From: Sediminibacterium sp.
Lineage (GTDB): Bacteria > Bacteroidota > Bacteroidia > Chitinophagales > Chitinophagaceae
Reading direction: 5' to 3'
Assembly: GCA_965279635.1 (NCBI GenBank)
Contig: OZ257253.1
Location: forward strand, 257,506-321,505
DNA: 64,000 nucleotides
Both the position numbers and the translations under genes were made by a program. The notes below the pieces were generated by a model that saw nothing but the letters and a program-made list of their open reading frames with translations, searched no databases and was not told the origin of the DNA. Position 1 is the first letter of the stretch, and the number at the start of each line of letters is the position of its first letter. Positions 964 through 64,000 of the stretch are shown piece by piece.

Positions 964-1902
964 TCAGGTCCATTCCACCGGCCGCAAACAAACCTGCCAC
1001 AATCTATCTTCTGCTGATCCCGGCACAGGTTGATGATCGTACACCCATCTTGCCCTTGGCGGTAAACTCATCAGTATGCTTTCTGTTCTGCCATTTGTTT
1101 TTAACCCGAAAATGGTTCCGCGATCATGCAGCAGGTTGAACTCAACATATCTTCCCCTGCGTATTTCCTGCCATTCGATTTCTCTCGCACTGTAGGGTAT
1201 ATCCTTTCTTTTGCTAACGATCGGCAAGTAGCTGTTGAGGAACCCATTTCCATTCGCCTGCTGGAACAAAAATAAGTTTTCAATATCCATTTTTGCATCC
1301 GGCCTGAGGTGATCGTAAAATATACCACCGATACCACGGGTTTCGCGGTTGCGGTGATAGTTCACAAAGTATTCATCGCATTGCTGTTTATAGCGCGGGT
1401 ATAAATCATTGTCAAATGTATCCAGCACATTTTTCAGGTACTGGTGAAAATATTTGGCGTCTTCTTCAAAAAGATAATAGGGTGTAAGATCCGTTCCTCC
1501 GCCAAACCAGCGGTCGGTGATATTTCCGGCCGTATCATATAATTCAAAATACCGCCAATTGGCATGCACGGTGGGCACGTAGGGATTTTGTGGATGTAGT
1601 ACCAATGACAGGCCGCAGGCAAACCATTGCTCACCTTCTATCTGTAATTGTTTGCGCATGGTATCGGTTACTTCTCCATACACAACCGAGGTATTTACAC
1701 CGCCTTTTTCAAATATGTTCCCATTACTGATGGTCATTGTTTTGCCGCCACCACCTTTTCCCCTTTCCCAATTATCTGTTGTAAAAACGGATTGGCCATC
1801 TGCCTGTTCCAAACCTTTGGTAATGGTATCCTGGAGTTGATGAATATAGTTTACCCATCTTTCTCTGAATCCACCGGGTTGATATGTTTGTGTACCGCTC
1901 AT
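964..1902 (-). CDS. hemF: oxygen-dependent coproporphyrinogen III oxidase
   Basis: 312-aa ORF with [12 protein letters not shown] and [15 protein letters not shown] motifs typical of HemF. Its start overlaps the hemE stop as ATGA. Confidence 0.93.
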
Positions 1903-2960: not shown

Positions 2961-3020
2961 AGTAGTGAGTAGGCAGTAGTGAGTAACAATATACTCACCA
3001 CTCACTACTGCCTACTCACT
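2961..3020. repeat. word hairpin (agtagtgagt words) at the hemD/hemE junction
   Basis: Perfect 21-bp stem, 2964-2984 with 3000-3020, and a 15-nt loop. The right arm contains the last hemD codons and its stop. Confidence 0.9.
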
Positions 3021-3716
3021 AAAATAACTTATCGCCTGTTCTACCAGTTTATCCTTACCAGGTTCATCGCTGATGATAATTTCGTTCTTACAAAATTTGC
3101 GGACTGTTTTTTTGGTGGTATCGCCTATCGCGAATACAATACAGTTTTCTGCAAGTGTGTTTATCGAAAAAAAACTTTCTACTGCACTTGGGCTGAAGAA
3201 TAAAACTGCATCATACTGCTTACCTGTTTTTTGAGGCGTTGCCGTGGTTTCGTAAACGATGATTTCATTGACGGTGATATCATTGTTGCGGAGCTTGTCC
3301 GGCAATTCATTCCTTCGTTGGTTGCCGCAGAAAAAGATCACTTCATCCGTATCGTCGTTCTCAATGATCGTGTCTGCCAGTTCTGACGCGGAGTTTGCCT
3401 CTCCTTCAATGGCATCTGTTCCGAAGTATTCTTTTACCAGTTGTTTGGTGCGGTGCCCCATGCAGTAAATACGCCATTCGGGCATCTGGCCGTTGAGCAT
3501 GGAAATGACTGATTCAACAGCATTCATACTGGTAAAGACAACGGTTGCATATTCTATGGCCGCCAGTTCTATTTCCTGTTGTATCTCGATGGACTGTACA
3601 GGTTCGGTTTCGATAAATGACAACTCATCGATCCCGATATTTTTTTCACGTGCTTTGTTGACCAGGAAACTGTCAACCGGGCGGGTGGATAATATGGTTG
3701 TTTTATATGCCTGCAT
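3012..3716 (-). CDS. hemD: uroporphyrinogen-III synthase
   Basis: Called from its position between hemC and hemE, its ~234-aa size and HEM4-like two-lobed alpha/beta sequence. Start taken at MQAYKTTILSTRPV, a 14-nt overlap with the hemC end. Family motifs are weak. Confidence 0.7.
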   Translation of the reverse strand: MQAYKTTILSTRPVDSFLVNKAREKNIGIDELSFIETEPVQSIEIQQEIELAAIEYATVVFTSMNAVESVISMLNGQMPEWRIYCMGHRTKQLVKEYFGTDAIEGEANSASELADTIIENDDTDEVIFFCGNQRRNELPDKLRNNDITVNEIIVYETTATPQKTGKQYDAVLFFSPSAVESFFSINTLAENCIVFAIGDTTKKTVRKFCKNEIIISDEPGKDKLVEQAISYFSE

Positions 3717-4680
3717 TCCTGATTGCTTCTCTGATTTTATCGCCGCCGTTGCTGAGTAATTCGTTTGCGGCTTTTGTGCCAAGATCATTTGCTCCGCTAA
3801 CGGGAACTTCCCGTGAAACAGTCGCTTTCTCTTTTCCATCCAGCGACAGTATATTTCCCTGGAAATAAATGGTATCGTCGCGTAACTCTGCCAATGCGCT
3901 GATAGGCGTGGAACAGCCGCCCATCAATACACGCAGAAAGTCCTTTTCAATTTTTGTGCAGAGTGCTGTTGCTGCATCATTTAATAAAGAACAGGCGTCG
4001 TAACTATCCTTGTCATCTTCCCTGCACACTATCATGATCGCTCCTTGTGATGGGGCGGGTAACATCCAGTCGAGTTCAATCGAATTCGCAGGGCGTAATC
4101 CGATACGTTCCAACCCGGCTGCGGCAAATATGGCACCGTCCCAGTTGTTGTCTGCCAGTTTCTGCATCCTCGTATTCACGTTGCCGCGAAGGTTATCCAG
4201 TTGGTGATGTGGGTAGCGATGCAGCCATTGTGCCTTGCGGCGGATGCTGCTGGTGGCAAGGGTGAATGTTGAATGATGAATGTTGAATGATGAATTGTCT
4301 GTTGACCATTGACCATTCACAAATCCCAATGTGTTAAATAATGTTTCTTCATCGCCCTTATACACCAACAGGTCCTTGTAAGAAGCCCTTGTCAATACTG
4401 CTGCCTGTTGTATGCCTTTTGCTAATTGTGTCGGTACATCTTTCATGGAATGAACGGCGATATCTATCCGGTTATTCAGGAGGGCCGCATCCAGTGTTTT
4501 GGTGAAGATGCCCTGTACGCCCATTTCATACAATGGGGTCACAAGATCGATATCGCCTTCGCTTTTGATGTACACGAGTTCGCTGGCGGTGCCCTGTTGC
4601 TGCAATTGCTGCTGCACAAGTGTTGCCTGCCAGACAGCCAGCTGGCTGTCACGGGTTCCTATCCGGATGTTTTTTTTCAT
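3703..4680 (-). CDS. hemC: hydroxymethylbilane synthase (porphobilinogen deaminase), carrying a ~20-aa in-frame repeat-derived insertion
   Basis: Motifs IRIGTRDSQLAVWQA, AVHSMKDVP, LRGNVNTR and GGCSTPI (cofactor Cys). Extra segment GFVNGQWSTDNSSFNIHHSTF lies before the conserved TSSIRR. Confidence 0.93.
   Translation of the reverse strand: MKKNIRIGTRDSQLAVWQATLVQQQLQQQGTASELVYIKSEGDIDLVTPLYEMGVQGIFTKTLDAALLNNRIDIAVHSMKDVPTQLAKGIQQAAVLTRASYKDLLVYKGDEETLFNTLGFVNGQWSTDNSSFNIHHSTFTLATSSIRRKAQWLHRYPHHQLDNLRGNVNTRMQKLADNNWDGAIFAAAGLERIGLRPANSIELDWMLPAPSQGAIMIVCREDDKDSYDACSLLNDAATALCTKIEKDFLRVLMGGCSTPISALAELRDDTIYFQGNILSLDGKEKATVSREVPVSGANDLGTKAANELLSNGGDKIREAIRNAGI
4262..4320. repeat. degenerate word hairpin (gaatgatgaatg words) embedded in-frame in hemC
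   Basis: 4262-4294 matches the intergenic hairpin arm 10608-10640 at 30 of 33 positions. Partner arm 4301-4320 pairs imperfectly. Confidence 0.8.
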
Positions 4681-7182: not shown

Positions 7183-7219
7183 GGCGACCCTCAATGAAGT
7201 GACCGGTTTGGTATTCTCA

Positions 7220-7260
7220 TTCATCATTCAAAATTCATCATTCAAAATTCCCTATTCCCT
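7220..7260. repeat. tandem 14-mer ttcatcattcaaaa x2, followed by ttccct x2, just upstream of hemJ
   Basis: Direct repeats read from the sequence. Same ttcatcattc vocabulary as 10646-10670 and the hemC insert. Confidence 0.8.
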
Positions 7261-7803: not shown

Positions 7804-7824
7804 ACTCTTTGTGAACCTTTGTGT

Positions 7825-7870
7825 CCTTTGTGTCTTAGTGGTTCTTTTTTGAACCACTAAGACACAAAGG
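7825..7870. terminator. hairpin downstream of hemJ (cctttgtg words)
   Basis: Perfect 20-bp stem, 7825-7844 with 7851-7870, and a tttttt loop. Confidence 0.7.
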
Positions 7871-8005
7871 CCCGAAGAAGGCACGAAGCTTTGTCACTTA
7901 AATGTCATATCTCCCCCGTTTCCCTAATCCGTAAATAGTTTTTCCCGATTCGTCAGCGGGGCGTGTTTTTGCGCGGGCATCTTTGCTGTCGTTAAAACAA
8001 AACGC

Positions 8006-10608: not shown

Positions 10609-10680
10609 TGAATATCGAATGATGAATGTAGAATGATGAAATAACTTCTACATTCATCATTCGATATTCATCATTTTTTC
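10609..10680 (+). terminator. word hairpin plus T-tract after the unknown secreted protein gene
   Basis: Perfect 25-bp stem, 10609-10633 with 10646-10670, followed by tcattttttc. Confidence 0.8.
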
Positions 10681-14029: not shown

Positions 14030-14115
14030 CACGCAAAGGCGCAAAGGCGCGGTTGGATAGTCCTGGGCGAAGATGCCCCCGGAGGCTAAAAACTGCGCCT
14101 TTGCGCCTTTGCGTG
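14030..14115. repeat. word palindrome (cgcaaaggc words)
   Basis: Perfect 21-nt inverted arms at 14030-14050 and 14095-14115, separated by 44 nt. Confidence 0.9.
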
Positions 14116-17617: not shown

Positions 17618-18568
17618 ATGGCTACTAAAAAACCTGCTCCGAAAAAGGCCGCCGCTAAAAAGCCGGCCCCTAAGAAAGCAGCACCCGCTAAAAAGGCAGC
17701 CAAACCTGCCCCTAAAAAGGCGGCCCCAGCTAAAAAAACGTCAAAACCCGCTCCTAAAAAGGCGGCTCCGGCTAAAAAACCAGTAAAACCTGCCCCTAAA
17801 AAGGTGGTTCCGGCTAAAAAAGCAGCGAAACCTGCTCCCAAACCGGTTCCTAAAAAAGTAGTACCGGTGAAAGCTGCTGCAAAGCCGGCTCCTAAACCAG
17901 CGCCTAAGCCTGTTGCCAAAGCGCCGCTGAAATTTGGCACCAAACCACCGCCTCCAAAACCTGCTAAGCCAGCGCCTCTGGTTTCAAAACCGCTGCCACC
18001 TATGGAAAAGCCGGTACCCAAAGGGCCGCCAACACCACCGGTGAAGCCAGTTAAAAAACAACACGAACCCATTAAGGAAGTAAAAGTGCCGAAGATCGCT
18101 ACCCGGTCAAGCGTACCTTACCAACCCGGATATACTCAATTAGAAAAAAGAACAGACACAGTGAGAAGCAACAACGGAGAACCTTTAGTGAAATACAACG
18201 ATAACGACCTGAATGAATTCAGGGAACTCATAGGCAAAAAACTCGAAGCGGCTAAAAAAGAGCTGGCTTACCTGCAGGGCCTGATCACCCGTAAGGATGA
18301 AATGGGTGGTGATAACGACGATGCGCGTTACATGACCATGGAAGACGGCAGTATGAGCATGGAAAGAGAGCAGTTGAGCCAGATGGCCAGCCGCCAGATC
18401 ACCTATATCGATCACCTCGAAAAAGCGATGATGCGTATCGAGAACAAAACCTACGGTATCTGCCGTGTAACAGGTAAACTGATCGATAAGGCCCGCTTAC
18501 GCGCCGTACCACACGCTACACTCAGCCTCGAAGCCAAACTGGGACTGGTGAAACCAAGCGTGGAATAA
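17618..18568 (+). CDS. DksA/TraR-family protein with an N-terminal Lys/Ala/Pro-rich histone-H1-like repeat domain
   Basis: C-terminal ~125 aa has a DksA-like coiled coil plus YGICRVTGKLIDKARLRAVPHATL, with only one Cys. N-terminal ~150 aa is made of KPAPKKAAPAKK repeats. Immediately follows ileS. Confidence 0.75.
   Translation: MATKKPAPKKAAAKKPAPKKAAPAKKAAKPAPKKAAPAKKTSKPAPKKAAPAKKPVKPAPKKVVPAKKAAKPAPKPVPKKVVPVKAAAKPAPKPAPKPVAKAPLKFGTKPPPPKPAKPAPLVSKPLPPMEKPVPKGPPTPPVKPVKKQHEPIKEVKVPKIATRSSVPYQPGYTQLEKRTDTVRSNNGEPLVKYNDNDLNEFRELIGKKLEAAKKELAYLQGLITRKDEMGGDNDDARYMTMEDGSMSMEREQLSQMASRQITYIDHLEKAMMRIENKTYGICRVTGKLIDKARLRAVPHATLSLEAKLGLVKPSVE
17627..17930 (+). repeat. coding tandem repeat, ~42-nt (14-aa) unit x5-6, encoding (A/S/V)KPAPKKAAPAKKx
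   Basis: Read directly from the protein: AKPAPKKAAPAKKT / SKPAPKKAAPAKKP / VKPAPKKVVPAKKA and further copies. It also creates the spurious antisense Gly/Ala ORF 17608..18072. Confidence 0.85.
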
Positions 18569-18622: not shown

Positions 18623-18792
18623 GAACAGATGAGCAAGGAACAAGGAACAGAAGAAGTTTTTTTGAATATCGAATAATGGAATGTAGAATTTCGAAGTAGG
18701 ACCCTGTAGTCCGATCCTTGTTCAACATTCCTTGTTCCCTGCTCATCTGTTCAAAATCCTTCGATATTCGACATTCCAATATTCGATATTCA
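18623..18792. repeat. two interleaved inverted-repeat pairs (A B A' B')
   Basis: A 18623-18647 pairs with A' 18728-18752 (24/25). B 18662-18696 pairs with B' 18759-18792 (~31/34). B' covers the ABC exporter stop codon. Confidence 0.8.
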
Positions 18793-22351: not shown

Positions 22352-22482
22352 CGTCCTTGCGAGCGAAGCGAAGCAATCTGTGATTTGCATAATTAATCTG
22401 TGTCTGGCTAGTAGCATCTTTCGTTTGCTCTTTCAACCTGACTATTCAAAACACAGGTTGCTTCGCTACGCTTGCAAGGACG
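22352..22482. repeat. long-range inverted repeat (gcgaagc words)
   Basis: Arms 22352-22376 and 22458-22482 match at 23/25, with an 81-nt spacer. Confidence 0.8.
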
Positions 22483-23380: not shown

Positions 23381-23399
23381 AGCTGTTTTTATTATGGCT

Positions 23400-23509
23400 G
23401 CGAAAATAGGAAATAGTTTGGAGTTTGGGGTTTGCGGTTTGGGGTCATCAGTGCGGAATACAAACTCTAAACTCCCAACTCCAAACCCCAAACTATTTCC
23501 TATTTTCGC
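23400..23509. repeat. word palindrome (gtttggrg words) filling the divergent transketolase/frr promoter region
   Basis: Arms 23400-23445 and 23461-23509. The outer 20 nt are perfect (gcgaaaataggaaatagttt) and the inner part is imperfect. Confidence 0.85.
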
Positions 23510-23534
23510 CCACACATACAGAAAAGCTTACTAT

Positions 23535-24098: not shown

Positions 24099-24124
24099 CG
24101 ACAGAAAGGATCAAGAGGCAATAT

Positions 24125-24194
24125 ACAAGCCACAAGGTTCAAGAGACAAGGCGGTCCATTGCGTAACCCTTGTCTCTTGAACCTTGTGGCTTGT
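24125..24194. terminator. hairpin between the convergent frr and EamA genes (caagrgacaagg words)
   Basis: Perfect 27-bp stem, 24125-24151 with 24168-24194, and a 16-nt loop. Confidence 0.8.
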
Positions 24195-24202
24195 ACCTTT
24201 TA

Positions 24203-25960: not shown

Positions 25961-26398
25961 ATGGGAATGTTCAAGGAATTCAAAGAGTTTGCCATAAGGG
26001 GCAACCTGGTTGATACGGCCGTTGCCTTTATCATGGGTGCCGCTTTCGGAAAAGTGGTCACGGCTTTTGTGGAAGGAATGGTGTCGCCAATGGTTGGGTT
26101 GCTAACCGGGGGTGTGGATTTTACCAAAAAAATATGGATCGTTAAACATGGGATACCTGAGGTAAAAGATGCAGCCGGCAAGGTGGTTACACCCGCAGTG
26201 GCGGATGTAGCCGTAAAATATGGCCTGTTCATTACCAACCTGATCGATTTTGTCATAGTAGCGTTCGCCGTATTCATGGTGATCAAAGCCATTAACCGTC
26301 TCAGGCGCAAGGAAGAGGCTGCCCCTCCCGCAGAACCGCCGGCACCTTCTGCTACGGAGAGTTTGTTGATGGAGATAAGGGACTCGTTGAGGAAATAG
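25961..26398 (+). CDS. mscL: large-conductance mechanosensitive channel
   Basis: FKEFAIRGNLVDTAVAFIMGAAFGKVV is the canonical MscL TM1 region. 145 aa. Confidence 0.9.
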   Translation: MGMFKEFKEFAIRGNLVDTAVAFIMGAAFGKVVTAFVEGMVSPMVGLLTGGVDFTKKIWIVKHGIPEVKDAAGKVVTPAVADVAVKYGLFITNLIDFVIVAFAVFMVIKAINRLRRKEEAAPPAEPPAPSATESLLMEIRDSLRK

Positions 26399-26403
26399 TT
26401 TAA

Positions 26404-26467
26404 AGTTTGGTGTTTGGGGTTTGGAGTTTTATTTCAACCCCAAACCCCTAACGCCAAACTCCAGACT
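26404..26467. repeat. word hairpin (gtttggrg words) after mscL
   Basis: 26405-26428 pairs with 26436-26459 (21/24). Shares the 14-mer ccaaactccagact with the uvrA internal repeat. Confidence 0.8.
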
Positions 26468-27435: not shown

Positions 27436-27469
27436 ATCGGCGAAACAGGATAATTAATAACACCTACTA

Positions 27470-27524
27470 AATCTGTGAATCTGTGGCGAATAATTGTACG
27501 CCACAGATTCACAGATTTTTTTTG
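27470..27524 (+). terminator. intrinsic terminator for scpA (aatctgtg words)
   Basis: Perfect 19-bp stem, 27470-27488 with 27499-27517, followed by tttttttg. Confidence 0.85.
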
Positions 27525-27534
27525 AGGATTACAA

Positions 27535-27605
27535 AAAACATAAAAACCCCGTGCCTTAGTGCCTTTGTGTGCAAATAAATTTCTCACAAGGACACTAAGG
27601 CACGG
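27535..27605 (-). terminator. intrinsic terminator for dxs
   Basis: Stem 27549-27569 with 27585-27605 (near-perfect). On the minus strand it is followed by a T-rich run (plus-strand aaaaaacataaaaa). Confidence 0.75.
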
Positions 27606-29580: not shown

Positions 29581-29697
29581 TTTGAGCTATCAGCTTTGAG
29601 CTATCAGCCATCAGCTTTCAGCCTTTTGCTATCACTTAATAGCAGTAAACTTTTCATGATTACTGAAAGCTGAGGGTTGAAGTCTGATAGCTCAAAG
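29581..29697. repeat. word palindrome (gagctatcagc / catcagc words) upstream of dxs
   Basis: Left arm 29581-29621 and right arm 29663-29697. Same vocabulary as 49661-49737. Confidence 0.75.
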
Positions 29698-29790
29698 CCC
29701 CCTGACCCGCCAAAACCAAGCTTTCAAGCCAAACAGACCCTGATTTTGCCTTTAATCAAAATTAGCAGTTGCGCGGTTCGGCTTTGCATA

Positions 29791-30883: not shown

Positions 30884-31615
30884 ATGGCAATCAAAGCAAT
30901 AATCATTGATGACGAACGTCTGGCCCGTAATGAGCTCAAAAAACTCTTACAGGACCATTCCGATATTGAAGTGATCGAAGAGGCGGCTAATGTAGATGAT
31001 GGTATCGAAAAGATCGAAACACTCAATCCCGACCTGATCTTCCTGGATATCCAGATGCCCGGCAAAACCGGATTCGACCTGCTGGCAGAAGTGGAAAAAG
31101 CGCCAAGGGTGATCTTCACCACGGCATACGATGAATACGCGATCAAAGCGTTTGAAGTAAATGCGCTGGATTACCTGCTCAAGCCGATAGAACCCAAACG
31201 CCTGGCCGATGCCATCCAGAAATTACAGGCAGAGATCTTCAAGGAAAATGTAGGGATCAACGGTGGTAACCGCGGCCCGCTTACCGAGTTCGACCAGGTA
31301 TTTGTAAAAGACGGCGAACGCTGCTGGTTTGTAAAACTGGGCGAGATCCGTTTGTTTGAAAGCGTGGGTAATTATGCCAAAGTATTCTTCGGAACACATA
31401 AGCCACTTATCCTCAAATCACTCAACGCACTGGAAGAAAGACTGGACGACAGGATGTTCTTCCGCGCCAACCGTAAACACATCATCAACCTCCGCTGGAT
31501 AGAAAAAATAGAACCTTATTTCAATGGCGGATTACTGGTTGACCTGAAAGGCGGTGAAAAAATTGAAGTGAGCCGCAGGCAGACCGTTAAGTTTAAAGAA
31601 ATGATGAGTTTGTGA
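30884..31615 (+). CDS. LytTR-family response regulator
   Basis: Receiver domain (IIDDE, DLIFLDIQMPG) plus a C-terminal LytTR DNA-binding domain (FFRANRKHIINL). Lies 9 nt after the kinase gene. Confidence 0.88.
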   Translation: MAIKAIIIDDERLARNELKKLLQDHSDIEVIEEAANVDDGIEKIETLNPDLIFLDIQMPGKTGFDLLAEVEKAPRVIFTTAYDEYAIKAFEVNALDYLLKPIEPKRLADAIQKLQAEIFKENVGINGGNRGPLTEFDQVFVKDGERCWFVKLGEIRLFESVGNYAKVFFGTHKPLILKSLNALEERLDDRMFFRANRKHIINLRWIEKIEPYFNGGLLVDLKGGEKIEVSRRQTVKFKEMMSL

Positions 31616-31715
31616 TCGGTCAGGCCGCTGGAAGCGGCCCGACCGGTTGCAGCAACCAAATACACCTCTCTATCACATGCCATCGGCCAGACCGCTTCCA
31701 GCGGCCGGGCCGCAA
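31615..31715. repeat. two self-complementary hairpins that are also inverted copies of each other (ggccgctggaagcggcc core)
   Basis: 31615-31647 and 31684-31715. The first is ~27/33 identical to 37766-37798. Confidence 0.8.
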
Positions 31716-37748: not shown

Positions 37749-37765
37749 ATTTTTGATTGCCAGCC

Positions 37766-37828
37766 ATCGGTCGGGCCGCTCAAAGCGGCCTGACCGATCG
37801 GGACCGCGCCTCTCTGGCGCGGTTTTTT
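37766..37828 (+). terminator. family hairpin plus intrinsic terminator after nrdJ
   Basis: atcggtcgggccgctcaaagcggcctgaccgat (37766-37798), then accgcgcc-tctc-tggcgcggt followed by tttttt (37803-37828). Confidence 0.85.
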
Positions 37829-38294: not shown

Positions 38295-38305
38295 ATCCAG
38301 GGTTG

Positions 38306-38398
38306 TTTCAATAAAAGAAAAACGAAGAAAAAAAGTAAAGAAGGTATCACTCAAACGACACTTCTTGTCTTCTTTTCTTCGTTTTTCTTTTATTGAAA
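38306..38398. repeat. purine/pyrimidine-word hairpin, second copy of the 861-956 family
   Basis: Arms 38306-38344 and 38361-38398. The first 26 nt pair perfectly. Confidence 0.85.
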
Positions 38399-38549
38399 TA
38401 ATACACCCATAACCTGCCAATACTCAGGTCTCTCGTTTCACGCTTCACGATCTGTTCCCGGGTTGATATTTTTTCAGCAAGCTAACGCCCATTACTCCAA
38501 AAAAATCCTACATTCATTCCTTCTAACGTCTACAAAACCTTATTGCTAT

Positions 38550-41075: not shown

Positions 41076-41119
41076 AAGCCGCAGATTCGCAGATTATTTA
41101 ATCTGCGAATCTGCGGCTT
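41076..41119. terminator. bidirectional terminator between the convergent small-subunit gene and metG
   Basis: Perfect 20-bp stem, 41076-41095 with 41100-41119, a 4-nt loop and A/T-rich flanks (gcagattc words). Confidence 0.85.
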
Positions 41120-43410: not shown

Positions 43411-44325
43411 ATGACGATCATTCCTGCTCACCTGCAAAAAGGGGATACCATCGGTATTGTTTGCCCTTCGGGGTATATGCCTTATGAAAAAGCCGCTACC
43501 TGTATCTCAGTTTTGAAGCAATGGGGTTACCAGGTACTGGTGGGTAAAACACTGGGCAGCCAGTTCCATTATTTTTCCGGAACGGATGCGGAGCGGCTGA
43601 ACGACCTGCAGCAGATGCTGGATAATCCGGAAGTAAAAGCCATTCTTTGTGGCCGTGGCGGTTATGGGATGAGCCGGATCATCGATCAGCTGGATTTTAA
43701 ACAATTCCGCAAACATCCCAAATGGCTGATCGGGTTCAGTGATATTACGGTGCTGCATGGACACGTATATAGCCGTTTCAATATAGCCTCATTACATTCC
43801 CCGATGGCGGCGGCGTTTAATGACGGTGAGTATGAGAAAGAATTTGTGCAGTCGCTTCGCAAGGCGCTACAGGGGAAAAGGGCTAATTATAGCTGTGCGG
43901 CCCATGCATTCAACCGTACAGGTAAAACAGAAGGTAAGCTGGTAGGGGGCAATCTTTCTTTACTCGCGCACCTTGTGGGAAGTAAATCTTCTTTCAAAAC
44001 AAAAGGAAAAATATTGTTCATTGAAGATGTAGGAGAATACATCTATAACGTGGACCGAATGATGATTCAGTTAAAACGAAGTGGTATGCTGGATGGGCTG
44101 GCGGGATTGATCGTTGGCAGTTTTACAGAAATGAAGGATACTACCGTTCCATTCGGAACAGAGACGCTTTCTGTCATTTTAGAACATGTGAAAGAATATG
44201 AGTATCCTGTCTGTTTCGATTTCCCCGTGAGCCATGATAGAAATAACTATGCATTGAAAATAGGTGTGAAATATTCCCTACAGGTTACCAAAACCAAGAC
44301 CACTCTCAAAGAAATCTCTGTGTAA
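43411..44325 (+). CDS. LD-carboxypeptidase (S66 family)
   Basis: 304 aa. Nucleophile motif GFSDITVLH and C-terminal HD motif (PVSHDRNN). Confidence 0.8.
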   Translation: MTIIPAHLQKGDTIGIVCPSGYMPYEKAATCISVLKQWGYQVLVGKTLGSQFHYFSGTDAERLNDLQQMLDNPEVKAILCGRGGYGMSRIIDQLDFKQFRKHPKWLIGFSDITVLHGHVYSRFNIASLHSPMAAAFNDGEYEKEFVQSLRKALQGKRANYSCAAHAFNRTGKTEGKLVGGNLSLLAHLVGSKSSFKTKGKILFIEDVGEYIYNVDRMMIQLKRSGMLDGLAGLIVGSFTEMKDTTVPFGTETLSVILEHVKEYEYPVCFDFPVSHDRNNYALKIGVKYSLQVTKTKTTLKEISV

Positions 44326-44422
44326 CTCTGTGCTCTCCGTGCCTCTGTGGTAAAGAACACCCTCCATCGATTGGAGCGAAGGCTTTACCACAGAGGCACG
44401 GAGGGCACAGAGATTCACAGAA
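44316..44422. repeat. ~107-nt palindromic element, copy 1 of 4
   Basis: 40-nt arms at 44316-44355 and 44383-44422 with a 27-nt loop. The left end overlaps the LD-carboxypeptidase stop, and the right end abuts the dipeptidase stop. Confidence 0.9.
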
Positions 44423-45505
44423 TTATTTCCAGGCATTCCGTAAAACACGGAGCCAGTTGCCATGCATGATACCCTCGCAATCTTCTTTTGAATACCCGCG
44501 TTTCATCAACAGCGAAGGAAAATGCTGCAGGTCAGCGATCGTATCAATATCATAAGGGGATTGTTCTTTACCATAAGCGCCATCCAGGTCGGTGCCGATA
44601 CCAACATGCAAAGTATTGCCAGCGAGCTGGCAGATATGATCGATATGGTCAATAATTTTCTCCATCCCGCAATCCATCTGTTTGGGATCAGAGACCCCTT
44701 TCTGCCAGCCGGGTACGATCATCCACGCATCCATCGAAGCGCCGATCACGGCTTTTTTTTCTATCAATACTTTGATCATCTCATCACTGAACTGGCGGTT
44801 ATGGTCAACTAATGCGCGACAGTTATTATGACTAGCCCAGATAGTGCCATTAAATATTTCCATTGCATCCCAGAAAGCATCATCACACAAATGGGTGGCA
44901 TCGAGTATGATGTTGAGCTTTTCCATTTCTTTCAGTAAGGCGATACCATCGCTGTTCAACCTGCCGGTAGCATTGGTGCCATTTGCATACCTGCCCGGGC
45001 CGTAATGTCCGGGCCCAACCGCTCTTAATCCGTATGCATGCGCAAGATGTAAATGATCAATGGTAACGATGGAGTCTGCACCTTCCAGGCTTAATATATA
45101 CCCGATAGGTTTTTTATCATGCTGTGTATCGCTGTTCCATGCGCGGATATGGTTCTCAAGATCAAGACTGTCTTTTATCTGCACCATTTCACCAACAGCT
45201 TCCATCTGTTTGTACCACGCGAGTTGTCCTTGCGTCTGTGCCCATGCCTGTTCGGGTGAATACCAGCCGGCTATAGTGCCCCCGGGTTTTACTACACGTG
45301 CAATTTGTGTAGCTACCACCAGCCCGATATTTCCTTCGCGTAATGCAGGTAGTGATACCGTTCCTCTGGCGCGGTCGGGTTTATCCGTCATGCCCAGTTC
45401 CCGTTCACGGATCTCGTGTACCGGTAAACGCAAGTCACGGTTCCATTCCATGGCATTCATGCTGAGGTCGAGATGTGCATCTATAATAAACATGATATCA
45501 GGCAT
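44423..45505 (-). CDS. membrane-dipeptidase family (M19) peptidase
   Basis: IIDAHLDLSMN N-terminal metal-binding motif. 360-aa TIM-barrel amidohydrolase-like sequence. Confidence 0.8.
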   Translation of the reverse strand: MPDIMFIIDAHLDLSMNAMEWNRDLRLPVHEIRERELGMTDKPDRARGTVSLPALREGNIGLVVATQIARVVKPGGTIAGWYSPEQAWAQTQGQLAWYKQMEAVGEMVQIKDSLDLENHIRAWNSDTQHDKKPIGYILSLEGADSIVTIDHLHLAHAYGLRAVGPGHYGPGRYANGTNATGRLNSDGIALLKEMEKLNIILDATHLCDDAFWDAMEIFNGTIWASHNNCRALVDHNRQFSDEMIKVLIEKKAVIGASMDAWMIVPGWQKGVSDPKQMDCGMEKIIDHIDHICQLAGNTLHVGIGTDLDGAYGKEQSPYDIDTIADLQHFPSLLMKRGYSKEDCEGIMHGNWLRVLRNAWK

Positions 45506-45508
45506 TGT

Positions 45509-45629
45509 CTCTGCGTAAACTCATATAACTCCTGTTCTCTGCGGTGAATTTTTTTTCGGATATCAGTCTGTATCCATTGCAAGGTGTTTTTCACCGCAGA
45601 GAACAGGAGTTACACAAGTTTACGCAGAG
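45509..45629. repeat. two-tier hairpin inside the RidA/D-TA/dipeptidase operon (ctctgcg words)
   Basis: Outer 12-bp stem 45509-45520 with 45618-45629. Inner perfect 23-bp stem 45526-45548 with 45590-45612. 41-nt loop. Confidence 0.9.
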
Positions 45630-47204: not shown

Positions 47205-47283
47205 GGTTTAACAGCGAGGATTAAAGATAAATAAAAAGCCACCTCAACAGAGATGGCTTCTTATAATTAAAACACTCACAAAC

Positions 47284-50677: not shown

Positions 50678-50784
50678 CTCTGTGTACCTCTGTGTCCTTT
50701 GTGCCTCTGTGGTAAAGAACACTCTCCATCGATCTAAGCGAAGGCTTTGCCACAGAGGCACAAAGGACACAGAGGTACACAGAG
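50678..50784. repeat. ~107-nt palindromic element, copy 2 of 4
   Basis: Arms 50678-50717 and 50745-50784 (39/40 paired). Lies between the oxyR stop (50675) and the hydrolase stop (50786). Confidence 0.92.
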
Positions 50785-51608: not shown

Positions 51609-51715
51609 CTCTGTGAAACTCCGTGTCCTCCGTGCCTCTGTGGTAAAGAACACTCTCCATCGATCTAAGCGAAGGCTTTACCACAGAGGCACGGAGGACA
51701 CAGAGGTTCACAGAG
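51609..51715. repeat. ~107-nt palindromic element, copy 3 of 4
   Basis: Arms 51609-51648 and 51676-51715 (38/40). The loop is identical to copy 2. Lies between the two hydrolase paralogs. Confidence 0.92.
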
Positions 51716-55079: not shown

Positions 55080-55172
55080 AAAGTAAAATCAATCCCTGTG
55101 CGGGAAATTTGGGAAGAAGGGGCAGGGAACAGAAGAACAAGGAACAGAAGAGTAATGAATAAGTAATAGGGA

Positions 55173-55252
55173 GGCCCGCAAATGTGTACTCACATTTGCT
55201 GATTTTTCTTCGGGCGACCCCGCAGGCAAATGTGAGGACACATTTGCGGGCC
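55173..55252. repeat. double-hairpin palindrome (gcaaatgtg...cacatttgc twice) between kup and the divergent unknown gene
   Basis: Arms 55173-55199 and 55226-55252 are inverted copies, and each arm is itself a hairpin. Confidence 0.85.
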
Positions 55253-55339
55253 TTCCATTTGTTTCGGAATCTTCTTAAACCGGATCCACAACCTCCTTCT
55301 TTTAGTGTTAATTTACATATCCAAAAGCCCCGCAACCCG

Positions 55340-61172: not shown

Positions 61173-61279
61173 CTCTGTGTACCTCTGTGCGCTTTGTGCC
61201 TCTGTGGTAAAGCCTTCGCTCTGATCAATGGAGGATGTTCTTTACCACAGAGGCACAAAGGTCACAGAGGTACACAGAG
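61173..61279. repeat. ~107-nt palindromic element, copy 4 of 4 (loop in opposite orientation)
   Basis: Arms 61173-61212 and 61240-61279 (38/40). The loop ccttcgctctgatcaatggaggatgtt is the reverse complement of the loops in copies 1-3. Confidence 0.92.
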
Positions 61280-62099: not shown

Positions 62100-64000
62100 A
62101 TGGCAACAAAAACAAAAGCAGCAGTTAAGACGAATACCATTGATGAGACAGGTAATATCGTAGTAAAAGGTGCGCGTACACACAATCTCAAGAATGTAAA
62201 TGTGGTGTTCCCGCGTAATCAACTGATCGTTGTTACTGGTGTATCCGGCAGCGGTAAATCATCTTTAACGATCGATACCTTATTTGCCGAGGGCCAGCGC
62301 CGTTATGCAGAAAGCCTGAGCGCGTATGCAAGACAGTTCATGGCGCGTATGGTTAAACCGGATGTGGATTATATCAAAGGCTTATGTCCTGCGATAGCTA
62401 TCGAACAGAAAGTGATCACACGTACACCACGCAGTACGGTGGGTAGTATGACGGAGATCTACGATTACCTGCGCTTGTTATTTGCACGTGCCGGTAAAAC
62501 CATTTCTCCCGTTAGCGGCAAGGAAGTAAAAAAAGATGATGTGGCCGATGTACTCAACGCCATCAATGCCATGCCGCATGGAACCAAAATACTGGTCATC
62601 GTTCCATTCAAACAACATGTAAAAAGAGAGGTACGTGAAGAACTAAGCATATTGATGCAGAAAGGGTTTTCGAGAATGTACTTTAGTCAGTCGGGAGTCG
62701 GGAGTGAGGAGTCTGGAGTAATTAAACGCATTGAAGAACTGCTGGAACTTTCTGACAAGGAATTAAAAAAACAACTCCAAACTCCAGACTCCAAACTCCA
62801 AACCCACGTCCTCATCGACCGCATCGTCACCAAAACCTTCGAAGAAGACGATCTGCACCGGTTATCAGATTCTATCGGCACCGCTTTTTACGAGGGTGAA
62901 GGTGAAATGTATATCGAGGTCAACAGCGAAAAATTGATCCACTTCAGTAATAAGTTTGAACTGGATGGTTTGCAGTTTGAAGAGCCGGTTCCTAATTTAT
63001 TTTCTTTTAATAATCCCTATGGCGCCTGTCCCACCTGCGAAGGGTTCAGCCAGGTATTGGGTATCGATGAGGATCTTGTGATCCCTGATAAAAGACTGAG
63101 CGTATATGAAGGCGCTGTTGCCCCCTGGAAAGGAGAAAAATTGGGCTGGTGGCGCGAGCAGTTTGTAAAAGCCGCCGGTAAAGCAGGCTTCCCGATACAT
63201 AAACCCATCATAGACCTTAGCAAACAGCAGTACAAACAGCTATGGGACGGTGAAGGAAATGCGCAGGGGATACATGATTTCTTTAAAGAAGTCGAACAGA
63301 ATTTATACAAAGTACAATACCGTGTTCTCCTGAGCCGCTACCGGGGCCGCACTACCTGTCCGGATTGTGAAGGCTATCGTTTGCGTAAGGAAGCATTGTA
63401 TGTAAAAGTAGACGGCAAACATATTGGTGAACTGTGCGAGATGCAGGTAAAGGATCTGCAAACATGGTTTGATGGAATAAAACTATCACAGCATGACCAG
63501 CAGGTGGCAAAAAGGATATTATTGGAAGTACACCAGCGGATACAGACATTGGTAGATGTGGGACTTGGCTATCTTACCCTGAACCGTCTCGCGAATTCAT
63601 TAAGCGGTGGTGAGAGCCAGCGTATCCAGTTGACACGCAGCCTGGGAAGCAATCTTACCAATTCGTTATACATTCTCGACGAACCCTCCATTGGATTACA
63701 TTCAAGGGATACGGAAAGGCTGATCAGTGTACTGAAATCATTGCGTGATCTTGGTAATACGGTTGTGGTGGTAGAGCATGACGAAATGATGATGCGTGAA
63801 GCAGATTATATCATCGACATGGGGCCGCTGGCTTCGCATCTTGGTGGGGAAGTGGTGGCAACGGGTAACTATGATGAACTGATATCCAATCCCGAAAGTC
63901 TCACCGGAAAATATCTTACAGGAGAATTCAGCATAGAGCCGCCGAAAAATATCCGCAAATGGACACGAAGCATTACCGTTGAAAATGCGAGGCAGAATAA
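62100..64000 (+). CDS. uvrA: excinuclease ABC subunit A, 5-prime part (runs off the window edge)
   Basis: Hand-translated; the ORF is open at the edge. VKGARTHNLKNVNVVFPRNQLIVVTGVSGSGKSSL, AEGQRRYAESLSAYARQF, Zn motifs CPTCEG and CPDCEG, LSGGESQRIQL. Confidence 0.93.
   Translation, partial: MATKTKAAVKTNTIDETGNIVVKGARTHNLKNVNVVFPRNQLIVVTGVSGSGKSSLTIDTLFAEGQRRYAESLSAYARQFMARMVKPDVDYIKGLCPAIAIEQKVITRTPRSTVGSMTEIYDYLRLLFARAGKTISPVSGKEVKKDDVADVLNAINAMPHGTKILVIVPFKQHVKREVREELSILMQKGFSRMYFSQSGVGSEESGVIKRIEELLELSDKELKKQLQTPDSKLQTHVLIDRIVTKTFEEDDLHRLSDSIGTAFYEGEGEMYIEVNSEKLIHFSNKFELDGLQFEEPVPNLFSFNNPYGACPTCEGFSQVLGIDEDLVIPDKRLSVYEGAVAPWKGEKLGWWREQFVKAAGKAGFPIHKPIIDLSKQQYKQLWDGEGNAQGIHDFFKEVEQNLYKVQYRVLLSRYRGRTTCPDCEGYRLRKEALYVKVDGKHIGELCEMQVKDLQTWFDGIKLSQHDQQVAKRILLEVHQRIQTLVDVGLGYLTLNRLANSLSGGESQRIQLTRSLGSNLTNSLYILDEPSIGLHSRDTERLISVLKSLRDLGNTVVVVEHDEMMMREADYIIDMGPLASHLGGEVVATGNYDELISNPESLTGKYLTGEFSIEPPKNIRKWTRSITVENARQN
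62689..62805. repeat. inverted word repeat (ggagtc/gtttggag vocabulary) in-frame inside uvrA
   Basis: Left arm 62689-62719 and right arm 62774-62805. Perfect 12-bp core, 62708-62719 with 62781-62792. The 14-mer at 62777-62790 is identical to 26454-26467. Confidence 0.75.

Follow-up and report, generated by a model that had tools for sequence, protein, structure and literature searches.

Why should a palindrome of about 107 bases occur four times in one stretch of a soil/freshwater Bacteroidota genome, each time pressed against the stop codons of neighbouring genes? The stretch analysed here, referred to as the window, comprises 64,000 nucleotides of a 4.47-Mb Sediminibacterium genome. Among named species Sediminibacterium soli is the closest relative; the DsbD proteins of the two share 79% identity, and no other protein exceeds 83%. 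A sequence-only reading of the window had described the four copies as 40-nt arms around a 27-nt loop, wedged between gene ends in three convergent contexts and one tandem context. On re-examination, the element is present at each of the four positions with these dimensions, with 4 mismatches in 37 pairs in the arms of copy 1. Every stop codon named beside a copy ends a long open reading frame with a full-length Pfam match, the edges of the elements lie 0-3 nt from these stops or overlap them, and the gene contexts are three convergent and one tandem, as described (Table 1). What that reading had overlooked is that copy 4 is inverted, that the arms are periodic arrays of heptamers, and that the window holds three diverged relatives of the element.

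A repeat search returned a single direct family of four 108-nt copies. The unit consists of two inverted arms flanking a short asymmetric loop, and in copies 2-4 the arms measure 40-41 nt, are 95-98% complementary and stand 27 nt apart. Each arm is laid out as CTCYGTG-NNN-CTCYGTG-NN-CTCYGTG-N-CTCTGTG-GTAAAG, that is, as four heptamers with spacers of 3, 2, 1 and 0 nt, and the loop terminates in ..GATCNAAGCGAAGGC. The window copies are 85-92% identical overall, and copies 2 and 3 have the same loop; copy 4 is 92% complementary to copy 2, with a same-strand identity of only 78%, and its loop is the reverse complement of that of copies 1-3. In copy 1, the LD-carboxypeptidase gene takes its final 2-3 codons and its TAA from the left arm, the TAA falling in the arm's first spacer, and the right edge touches the stop of the M19 dipeptidase gene. 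With nhmmer the window copies give E-values of about 1e-35, and a covariance model built from 24 copies and scanned over the window scores them at 93-103 bits (E about 1e-23). The heptamer CTCTGTG is itself confined to the family: all 26 of its occurrences in the window, where 4.6 would be expected in total, lie inside the four copies and one relative.

Table 1. Positions of the elements, their relatives and other repeats, in window coordinates unless a contig is named.
Feature	Position	Loop orientation	Covariance model score (bits)	Neighbouring genes and layout
Copy 1	44316-44422	+	93.5	LD-carboxypeptidase stop 44323-25, M19 dipeptidase stop 44423-25; edge-to-stop gaps -10 and 0
Copy 2 (reference copy)	50678-50784	+	102.6	left arm 50678-50717, loop 50718-50744, right arm 50745-50784; convergent gap, LysR stop 50673-75 2 nt away, alpha/beta hydrolase stop 50786-88 1 nt away on the other side
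Copy 3	51609-51715	+	99.4	tandem minus-strand hydrolase genes on both sides; alpha/beta hydrolase stop 51718-20 2 nt off, next start codon 19 nt off
Copy 4	61173-61279	-	97.1	DsbD stop 61167-69 3 nt off, ECF sigma factor stop 61281-83 1 nt off
Diverged relative, loop 41 nt	45509-45629		58	stop 45635-37 5 nt off, start codon at 45505 3 nt off
Relative with reversed arm order, no loop	52616-52695		49	rhodanese stop 61 nt away
Diverged relative, heptamer CTTTGTG	7806-7888		42	begins 2 nt past stop 7801-03
Spacer from copy 3 to next start codon	51590-51608 (minus strand)			19 nt
Other intergenic palindromes	2963-3021, 4255-4308, 7218-7259, 10609-10670, 14030-14115, 18663-18792, 22352-22482, 23381-23528, 24124-24195, 26397-26467, 27469-27518, 27549-27605, 29586-29698, 38303-38401, 41076-41119			
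In-frame heptamer palindrome	62692-62808			within uvrA (start 62100)
Palindrome with 31-nt arms	55169-55256			divergent gap upstream of the Kup potassium transporter gene
GC-rich hairpin	31614-31650			1 nt past LytTR regulator stop
GC-rich hairpin, opposite orientation	37763-37799			17 nt past ribonucleotide reductase stop
Five tandem 42-nt repeats	17659-17868			within DksA-type zinc-finger gene (17618-18568)
Canonical terminator	47231-47264 (minus strand)			19 nt past katG stop
Non-palindromic repeats, S. soli	L038 1668-1795			LysR/hydrolase gap, 128 nt
Tandem-repeat arrays, relative	L037 11945-12895			dsbD/sigma factor gap, 951 nt
Arms with added 10-nt units	L013 4997-5052; L024 5529-5555			
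Modules in high-GC contigs	L016 200-360 and 10650-10700; L025 630-760; L035 1300-2050; L040-L045 about 1300-1500			

The three diverged relatives in the window follow this plan, each with departures of its own. The highest-scoring one has an arm reading CTCTGCG TAA ACTCATA TA ACTCCTG TT CTCTGCG GTGAA; the second carries its arms in reverse outside-in order (TTTTTTCAACACAGAG...|...CTCTGTGTTGAAAAAA); and the third, likewise spaced 3-2-1-0, has a right arm that is decayed in its outer part. Outside the window, a related 107-nt element occurs in a Chitinophagaceae MAG, and a gapped two-arm pattern scan of genome contigs gave, among the matches listed, one relevant locus (L001) and 7 unrelated palindromes. 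A metagenome scan with the loop-arm junction, which recurs in at least 25 contigs, yielded 28 contigs, which between them carry about 30 complete copies. These measure 95-98 nt and share the arms, and their loop (..GATCGAAGCGAAGGC) is shorter, at 17-20 nt versus 27 nt in the window. One metagenome carrier is Niastella/Puia-like, the loop variants are genome-specific, and sister families in metagenome contigs combine the same arms with different loops (CTCTGTGTTGAAAAAA...). On these similarities, the four copies can be regarded as members of a non-coding family of palindromic repeats that occurs in many copies in the Chitinophagaceae. A further candidate, L010, was rejected as a chance 20-mer match within a gene. 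Plasmid BLAST and a viral-contig scan gave no element matches, and Rfam gave none at the gathering score and, at permissive E-values, only sub-threshold generic matches to eukaryotic miRNA hairpin models.

Related arms and modules are also found in other arrangements. In L013 and L024, one arm carries added 10-nt units of the form CACAGAGTTR, five of them consecutive in L013, which suggests that arms grow by unit slippage and that the two arms can end up unequal. Modules of CTCTGTG arrays, including CCTCTGTGGTAAAGCCTTCGCC and CTCTGTGCTCTCCGTGTCCTCTGTGGTGAAA, occur in contigs of 55-58% GC, one of which (L016) is assigned to Ca. Acidoferrum (Acidobacteriota). There the modules are arranged as direct repeats, on the coding strand and immediately upstream of genes, with AACTGTG heptamer arrays alongside, and their copy number varies between relatives at 90-94% protein identity.

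In the alignment of 24 copies, 94.4% of cells are paired and 12 of the 37 pairs show changes on both sides; none of 500 shuffles paired as well, and slid controls pair at 30-62%. Judged from this alignment, arm complementarity is kept through paired changes, with the variation falling mainly in the spacer columns and the heptamer cores near-invariant. Both strands of the window copies have a predicted fold of -77 to -84 kcal/mol (z of -12 to -14), and single arms, at -1.3 and -3.4 kcal/mol, are within the shuffled range and do not self-fold. Taken together, the nhmmer and covariance-model E-values, the z-scores of the fold and the confinement of CTCTGTG place the arrangement far beyond chance. 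The arm mismatches that do occur are mostly transitions and show no strand preference: there is no G:U bias on the transcribed strand in tandem contexts (20 G:U versus 19 A:C), and none relative to loop orientation (18 G:T versus 21 A:C). This absence of a G:U preference counts against a role as RNA hairpins and lends selection at the RNA level no support.

As to transcription termination, the elements place a stable hairpin just 3' of a gene, as intrinsic terminators do; the flank profile has no U-tract 3' of the stem, and a terminator scan does not call them. Canonical hairpin-plus-T sites in the window are not above chance either, which leaves hairpins of the heptamer type as the main 3' structures present. 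The highest-scoring diverged relative argues against reading the elements as terminators, since it leaves so few nucleotides before the next start codon (Table 1) that a strong terminator there would silence that gene. The sole convincing canonical terminator between 43 and 62.5 kb follows katG and consists of a 15-bp stem and then TTTTTATTTAT.

The placement of the elements was assessed on copies picked by sequence alone, so that their positions are unbiased, with simple longest-ORF gene calls in the metagenome contigs. Of 34 stop-facing edges in the main family, 23 are no more than 6 nt away from the stop (median 4.5 nt), compared with 0 of 14 start-facing edges (median 56 nt); in the sister families the figures are 12 of 16 and 1 of 4, and only 3.9% of intergenic positions lie at most 6 nt from a stop. 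The preference for stop-proximal positions, on which the sequence-only reading had staked itself beforehand, therefore holds: insertions are found almost only at gene 3' ends, mostly 0-6 nt from the stop. Both orientations occur with respect to the upstream gene, and the spacer left over at convergent sites is usually 3-9 nt. The flanks of 26 oriented copies contain no direct repeat and no fixed target motif, in keeping with the earlier report of no target-site duplication, and their enrichment in A/T consists largely of the TAA/TTA stops themselves. On the coding strand, the sequence that separates copy 3 from the following start codon is TAACTTTG, and L037 has TACCTTTG in its place. TAACTTTG fits the Bacteroidetes -7 promoter box, TAnnTTTG, so that copy 3 seemingly fills the room from a stop codon to the next gene's core promoter.

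The sequence-only reading had seen two ways to account for this tight fit, site-specific insertion beside stops and selection as bidirectional 3'-end structures, and had proposed a search for empty sites in relatives. The stop proximity stands and fits either option; a third option, that harmless space exists only directly after stops in compact genomes, is enough to explain much of the pattern. Orthologous sites were compared in three syntenic relatives at about 80% protein identity: S. soli (L038), L039 and L037. In S. soli, dsbD and the sigma factor gene are 13 nt apart; between them L039 has 68 nt of unrelated sequence and L037 has 951 nt of other tandem repeats. Between LysR and the hydrolase gene, S. 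soli has 128 nt of non-palindromic GGAACAG/GGAACAA repeats and L039 has 30 nt; synteny differs in L037. Between the two hydrolase genes, S. soli has a sister CTCYGTG hairpin, L039 has nothing and L037 has an AGTCTGG hairpin, so that three lineages carry three different hairpins at this site and a fourth lineage carries none. Since the orthologous sites are empty or hold unrelated hairpins, the window copies are lineage-specific insertions, and the comparison indicates that the same gene ends are filled repeatedly by different hairpins. The copies are shown to be duplicates of each other and not conserved ancestral sequence; and the relatives without a hairpin at the same gene ends indicate that the elements are not essential. 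The 95-nt subfamily offers no alignable empty site, the CarB of the organism represented by L015 having no relative above 88%. The long gap in L037 is itself composed of several tandem-repeat arrays together with a TTGAACA-type palindrome that touches the stop of the sigma factor gene.

The family is also not an isolated one, as the sequence-only reading had made it appear, being one among many heptamer-array palindromes of this genome. When long palindromes (score of at least 16) were scored against curated gene calls of the window, each of the 10 convergent gaps proved to contain one, as did 9 of the 17 tandem and 2 of the 11 divergent gaps (Fisher p = 2e-4). In most of them the arms are built from other tandem heptamers (TGAATGA, GTTTGGG, ATCAGCT, ACAAGG, CGCAGAT). 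S. soli and L039 have far fewer long palindromes than the window, which makes palindrome abundance a property of this lineage.

Repeats of several other kinds share the window with the family. The other intergenic palindromes (Table 1) have arms of unrelated tandem 7-8-mers, including CGCAAAGG; most touch stops, and several recur two to four times in the window. The uvrA gene contains an in-frame heptamer 'palindrome' (GTCGGGAGTCGGGAGTGAGGAGTCTGGAGT ... ACTCCAGACTCCAAACTCCAAACCC), whose right arm is conserved as the protein sequence QLQTPDSKLQT in three relatives and whose left side is variable in length, with additional tandem repeats in L037. Upstream of the Kup gene, each of the 31-nt arms of a palindrome consists itself of small palindromes (GCAAATGTGTACTCACATTTGC), with no Rfam match and no heptamer array. 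A second small family comprises two GC-rich hairpins (CGGTCAGGCCGCT..AGCGGCCCGACCG), and the five 42-nt repeats in the DksA-type gene encode a Lys/Ala/Pro-rich repeat region.

Several known systems resemble the elements in part. With the REP, BIME and REPIN sequences of Enterobacteria and Pseudomonas, which are mobilised by RAYT HUH transposases, they share being short, non-coding, multicopy extragenic palindromes (here four copies and three relatives, with about 30 in related contigs), occurring in both orientations, lacking target-site duplications, forming genome-specific subfamilies, and being concentrated at gene 3' ends and between convergent genes. Many REPs of E. coli are found at most 15 nt from a stop codon, where they stall ribosomes (PMC12306157, citing Liang et al. 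2015), and REPINs are hairpins of about 100 nt made from two inverted units (PMC3116915). However, the REP foot motif, GT[AG]G or CGTC, is absent here: the outer ends are CTCTGTG...CACAGAG, and GTGG is found only at the loop-side end of the arm. REP and REPIN units are moreover small imperfect palindromes, whereas the arms described here are heptamer arrays that do not fold by themselves and that together form a stem of about 40 bp. The host also differs, as it belongs to the Chitinophagaceae, and in Bacteroidetes only 'atypical secondary structures' flanking RAYT subclass 2.6 genes have been noted (PMC6006769). MITEs such as the Neisseria Correia elements, ERIC/IRU and RUP are likewise intergenic, about 100-150 bp long, co-transcribed and able to form long RNA hairpins, and the 40-nt arms correspond to their terminal inverted repeats. 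The differences from MITEs are that target-site duplications are absent from the 26 oriented copies, that no parent insertion sequence sharing their ends was found, that the arms are internally periodic, and that placement next to stops is much tighter. Because the elements lack the foot motif and self-folding units of REPs as well as the target duplication of MITEs, we refer to them as dispersed intergenic palindromic repeats, members of neither family.

Further parallels concern heptamers and terminators. Elhai and colleagues are said to have described, in 2008, small dispersed repeats in heptamer arrays of Nostoc. The heptamer tandem repeats of Cyanobacteria (STRR), Beggiatoaceae and some Bacteroidetes (PMC4679880) are also intergenic arrays of 7-nt units, with copy numbers that vary strongly between close relatives and shorter, repeat-free gaps in sister species; but they are direct and mostly upstream of starts, whereas the arrays in our window are inverted pairs with graded spacers around a conserved loop, located after stops. 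Bidirectional intrinsic terminators, including the inverted DNA-uptake-sequence pairs of Neisseria and Haemophilus, likewise place between convergent genes a hairpin able to fold equally on either strand; the stem of the elements, however, is 3-4 times longer, and the A-tract/T-tract frame is absent. DNA uptake sequences are also spread through coding DNA, which CTCTGTG, with 0 window matches outside the elements, is not.

We read the element, with moderate confidence, as a dispersed palindrome of the REP/MITE-like kind, which the host tolerates and perhaps employs as a bidirectional hairpin at RNA 3' ends. Its spread without target duplication might rely on a transposase acting in trans or on copying from one intergenic region to another; the route most compatible with the data is one through a single-stranded hairpin, of the HUH/RAYT type. 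The lack of a transposase, observed already in the sequence-only reading, extends to HUH and reverse-transcriptase genes in the window: its 50 genes are all housekeeping and include no mobilising gene and no RAYT gene. A six-frame search for the HUH...Y(I/V)xxNP motif over about 360 kb of related loci likewise turned up no RAYT-like gene, and this lack of a mobilising gene counts against the reading; no arm pair enclosing a gene, as expected of a parent insertion sequence, was seen in the loci examined. New copies would survive only in the small harmless space directly past stops. There, either transcript could form a hairpin of about 40 bp (about -80 kcal/mol), which may act as a REP-like bidirectional barrier that ends the mRNA or stabilises its 3' end. 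As the hairpin begins within the footprint of the terminating ribosome, it may also be coupled to translation termination. A plain hairpin function does not explain why the heptamer cores and their spacing are so strictly conserved.

The main rival holds the element to be purely selfish or neutral mobile DNA without host function, its position beside stops resulting from selection that purges insertions in genes, promoters and 5' leaders; we consider this possible, if on the unlikely side. It accommodates the relatives that lack any hairpin at the same sites, in which hairpin-free convergent gaps measure only about -9 to 99 nt, so short that any surviving insertion is automatically near both stops. 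In tandem gaps, too, the element is found close to the stop and at a distance from the promoter that follows (start-side median 56 nt), some insertions have clipped the last codons of genes (copy 1, L013 and L019), and G:U strand bias is absent. What speaks against neutrality is that double changes maintain the pairing of the arms, that every convergent gap of the window (10 of 10) has a long palindrome, drawn from many families, which looks like more than tolerance, and that the residual spacer at convergent sites, at 3-9 nt, is below most empty-site lengths.

More speculatively, the true unit could be a module of about 40 nt, consisting of four CTCYGTG heptamers with 3-2-1-0 spacers and a tail such as GTGAAAA, TTGAAAAAA or GTAAAGCCTTCGC, that is recognised and propagated, without target duplication, by some machinery; the module would be common to two phyla, occurring in Chitinophagaceae and in the acidobacterium Ca. 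Acidoferrum. In Chitinophagaceae, such modules would pair head-to-head or tail-to-tail into hairpins homing to the first few nucleotides after stops. We put this forward as an unlikely idea that, if true, would define a class of mobile DNA that seeks terminators or stops and differs from both REP/RAYT elements and DDE MITEs.

A further reading, which we consider improbable, is that the element acts at the DNA level, with the CACAGAG/CTCTGTG arrays, as duplex or cruciform and not as RNA, binding a nucleoid protein, a recombinase, or a gyrase-type enzyme that deals with supercoils between convergent genes. E. coli BIMEs bind gyrase and IHF, which counts in favour of such a role, as do the conserved heptamer cores and 10-9-8 spacing amid freely varying spacers, the absence of CTCTGTG from the rest of the window, the strand-symmetric mismatches, and the occurrence of the same arm modules in Ca. 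Acidoferrum as direct, non-hairpin repeats upstream of genes. However, no candidate protein is known, the bias towards 3' ends fits a role at the transcript level equally well, and the paired spacer changes imply selection for, or regeneration of, complementarity itself, a property that duplex binding sites can do without. Finally, independently evolved local terminators or chance low-complexity palindromes are conceivable in a genome that makes many unrelated heptamer palindromes, but this reading is effectively refuted by the non-repetitive 27-nt loop common to the four copies and identical in copies 2 and 3, by their 85-92% overall identity and by the recurrence of the loop-arm junction in at least 25 contigs.

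A full-text literature search gave no description of these elements, which thus apparently constitute an undescribed, large REP/MITE-like family; heptamer direct repeats in some Bacteroidetes are already known (PMC4679880). Transcript 3' ends and small mobile repeats have so far been poorly covered in Bacteroidota, and the covariance model provides a ready annotation marker for Chitinophagaceae genomes. The conserved heptamer spacing and the presence of the same modules in an unrelated phylum point to a protein partner. If the elements are only parasites, they provide a clean natural experiment on where insertions are harmless in a compact genome. The family probably shapes mRNA 3' ends, in a genome in which canonical terminators are scarce and long heptamer-array palindromes stand at every convergent junction of the window; if the elements indeed end or stabilise transcripts, they would be the main 3'-end signal of this lineage, and one with a fast turnover between species.
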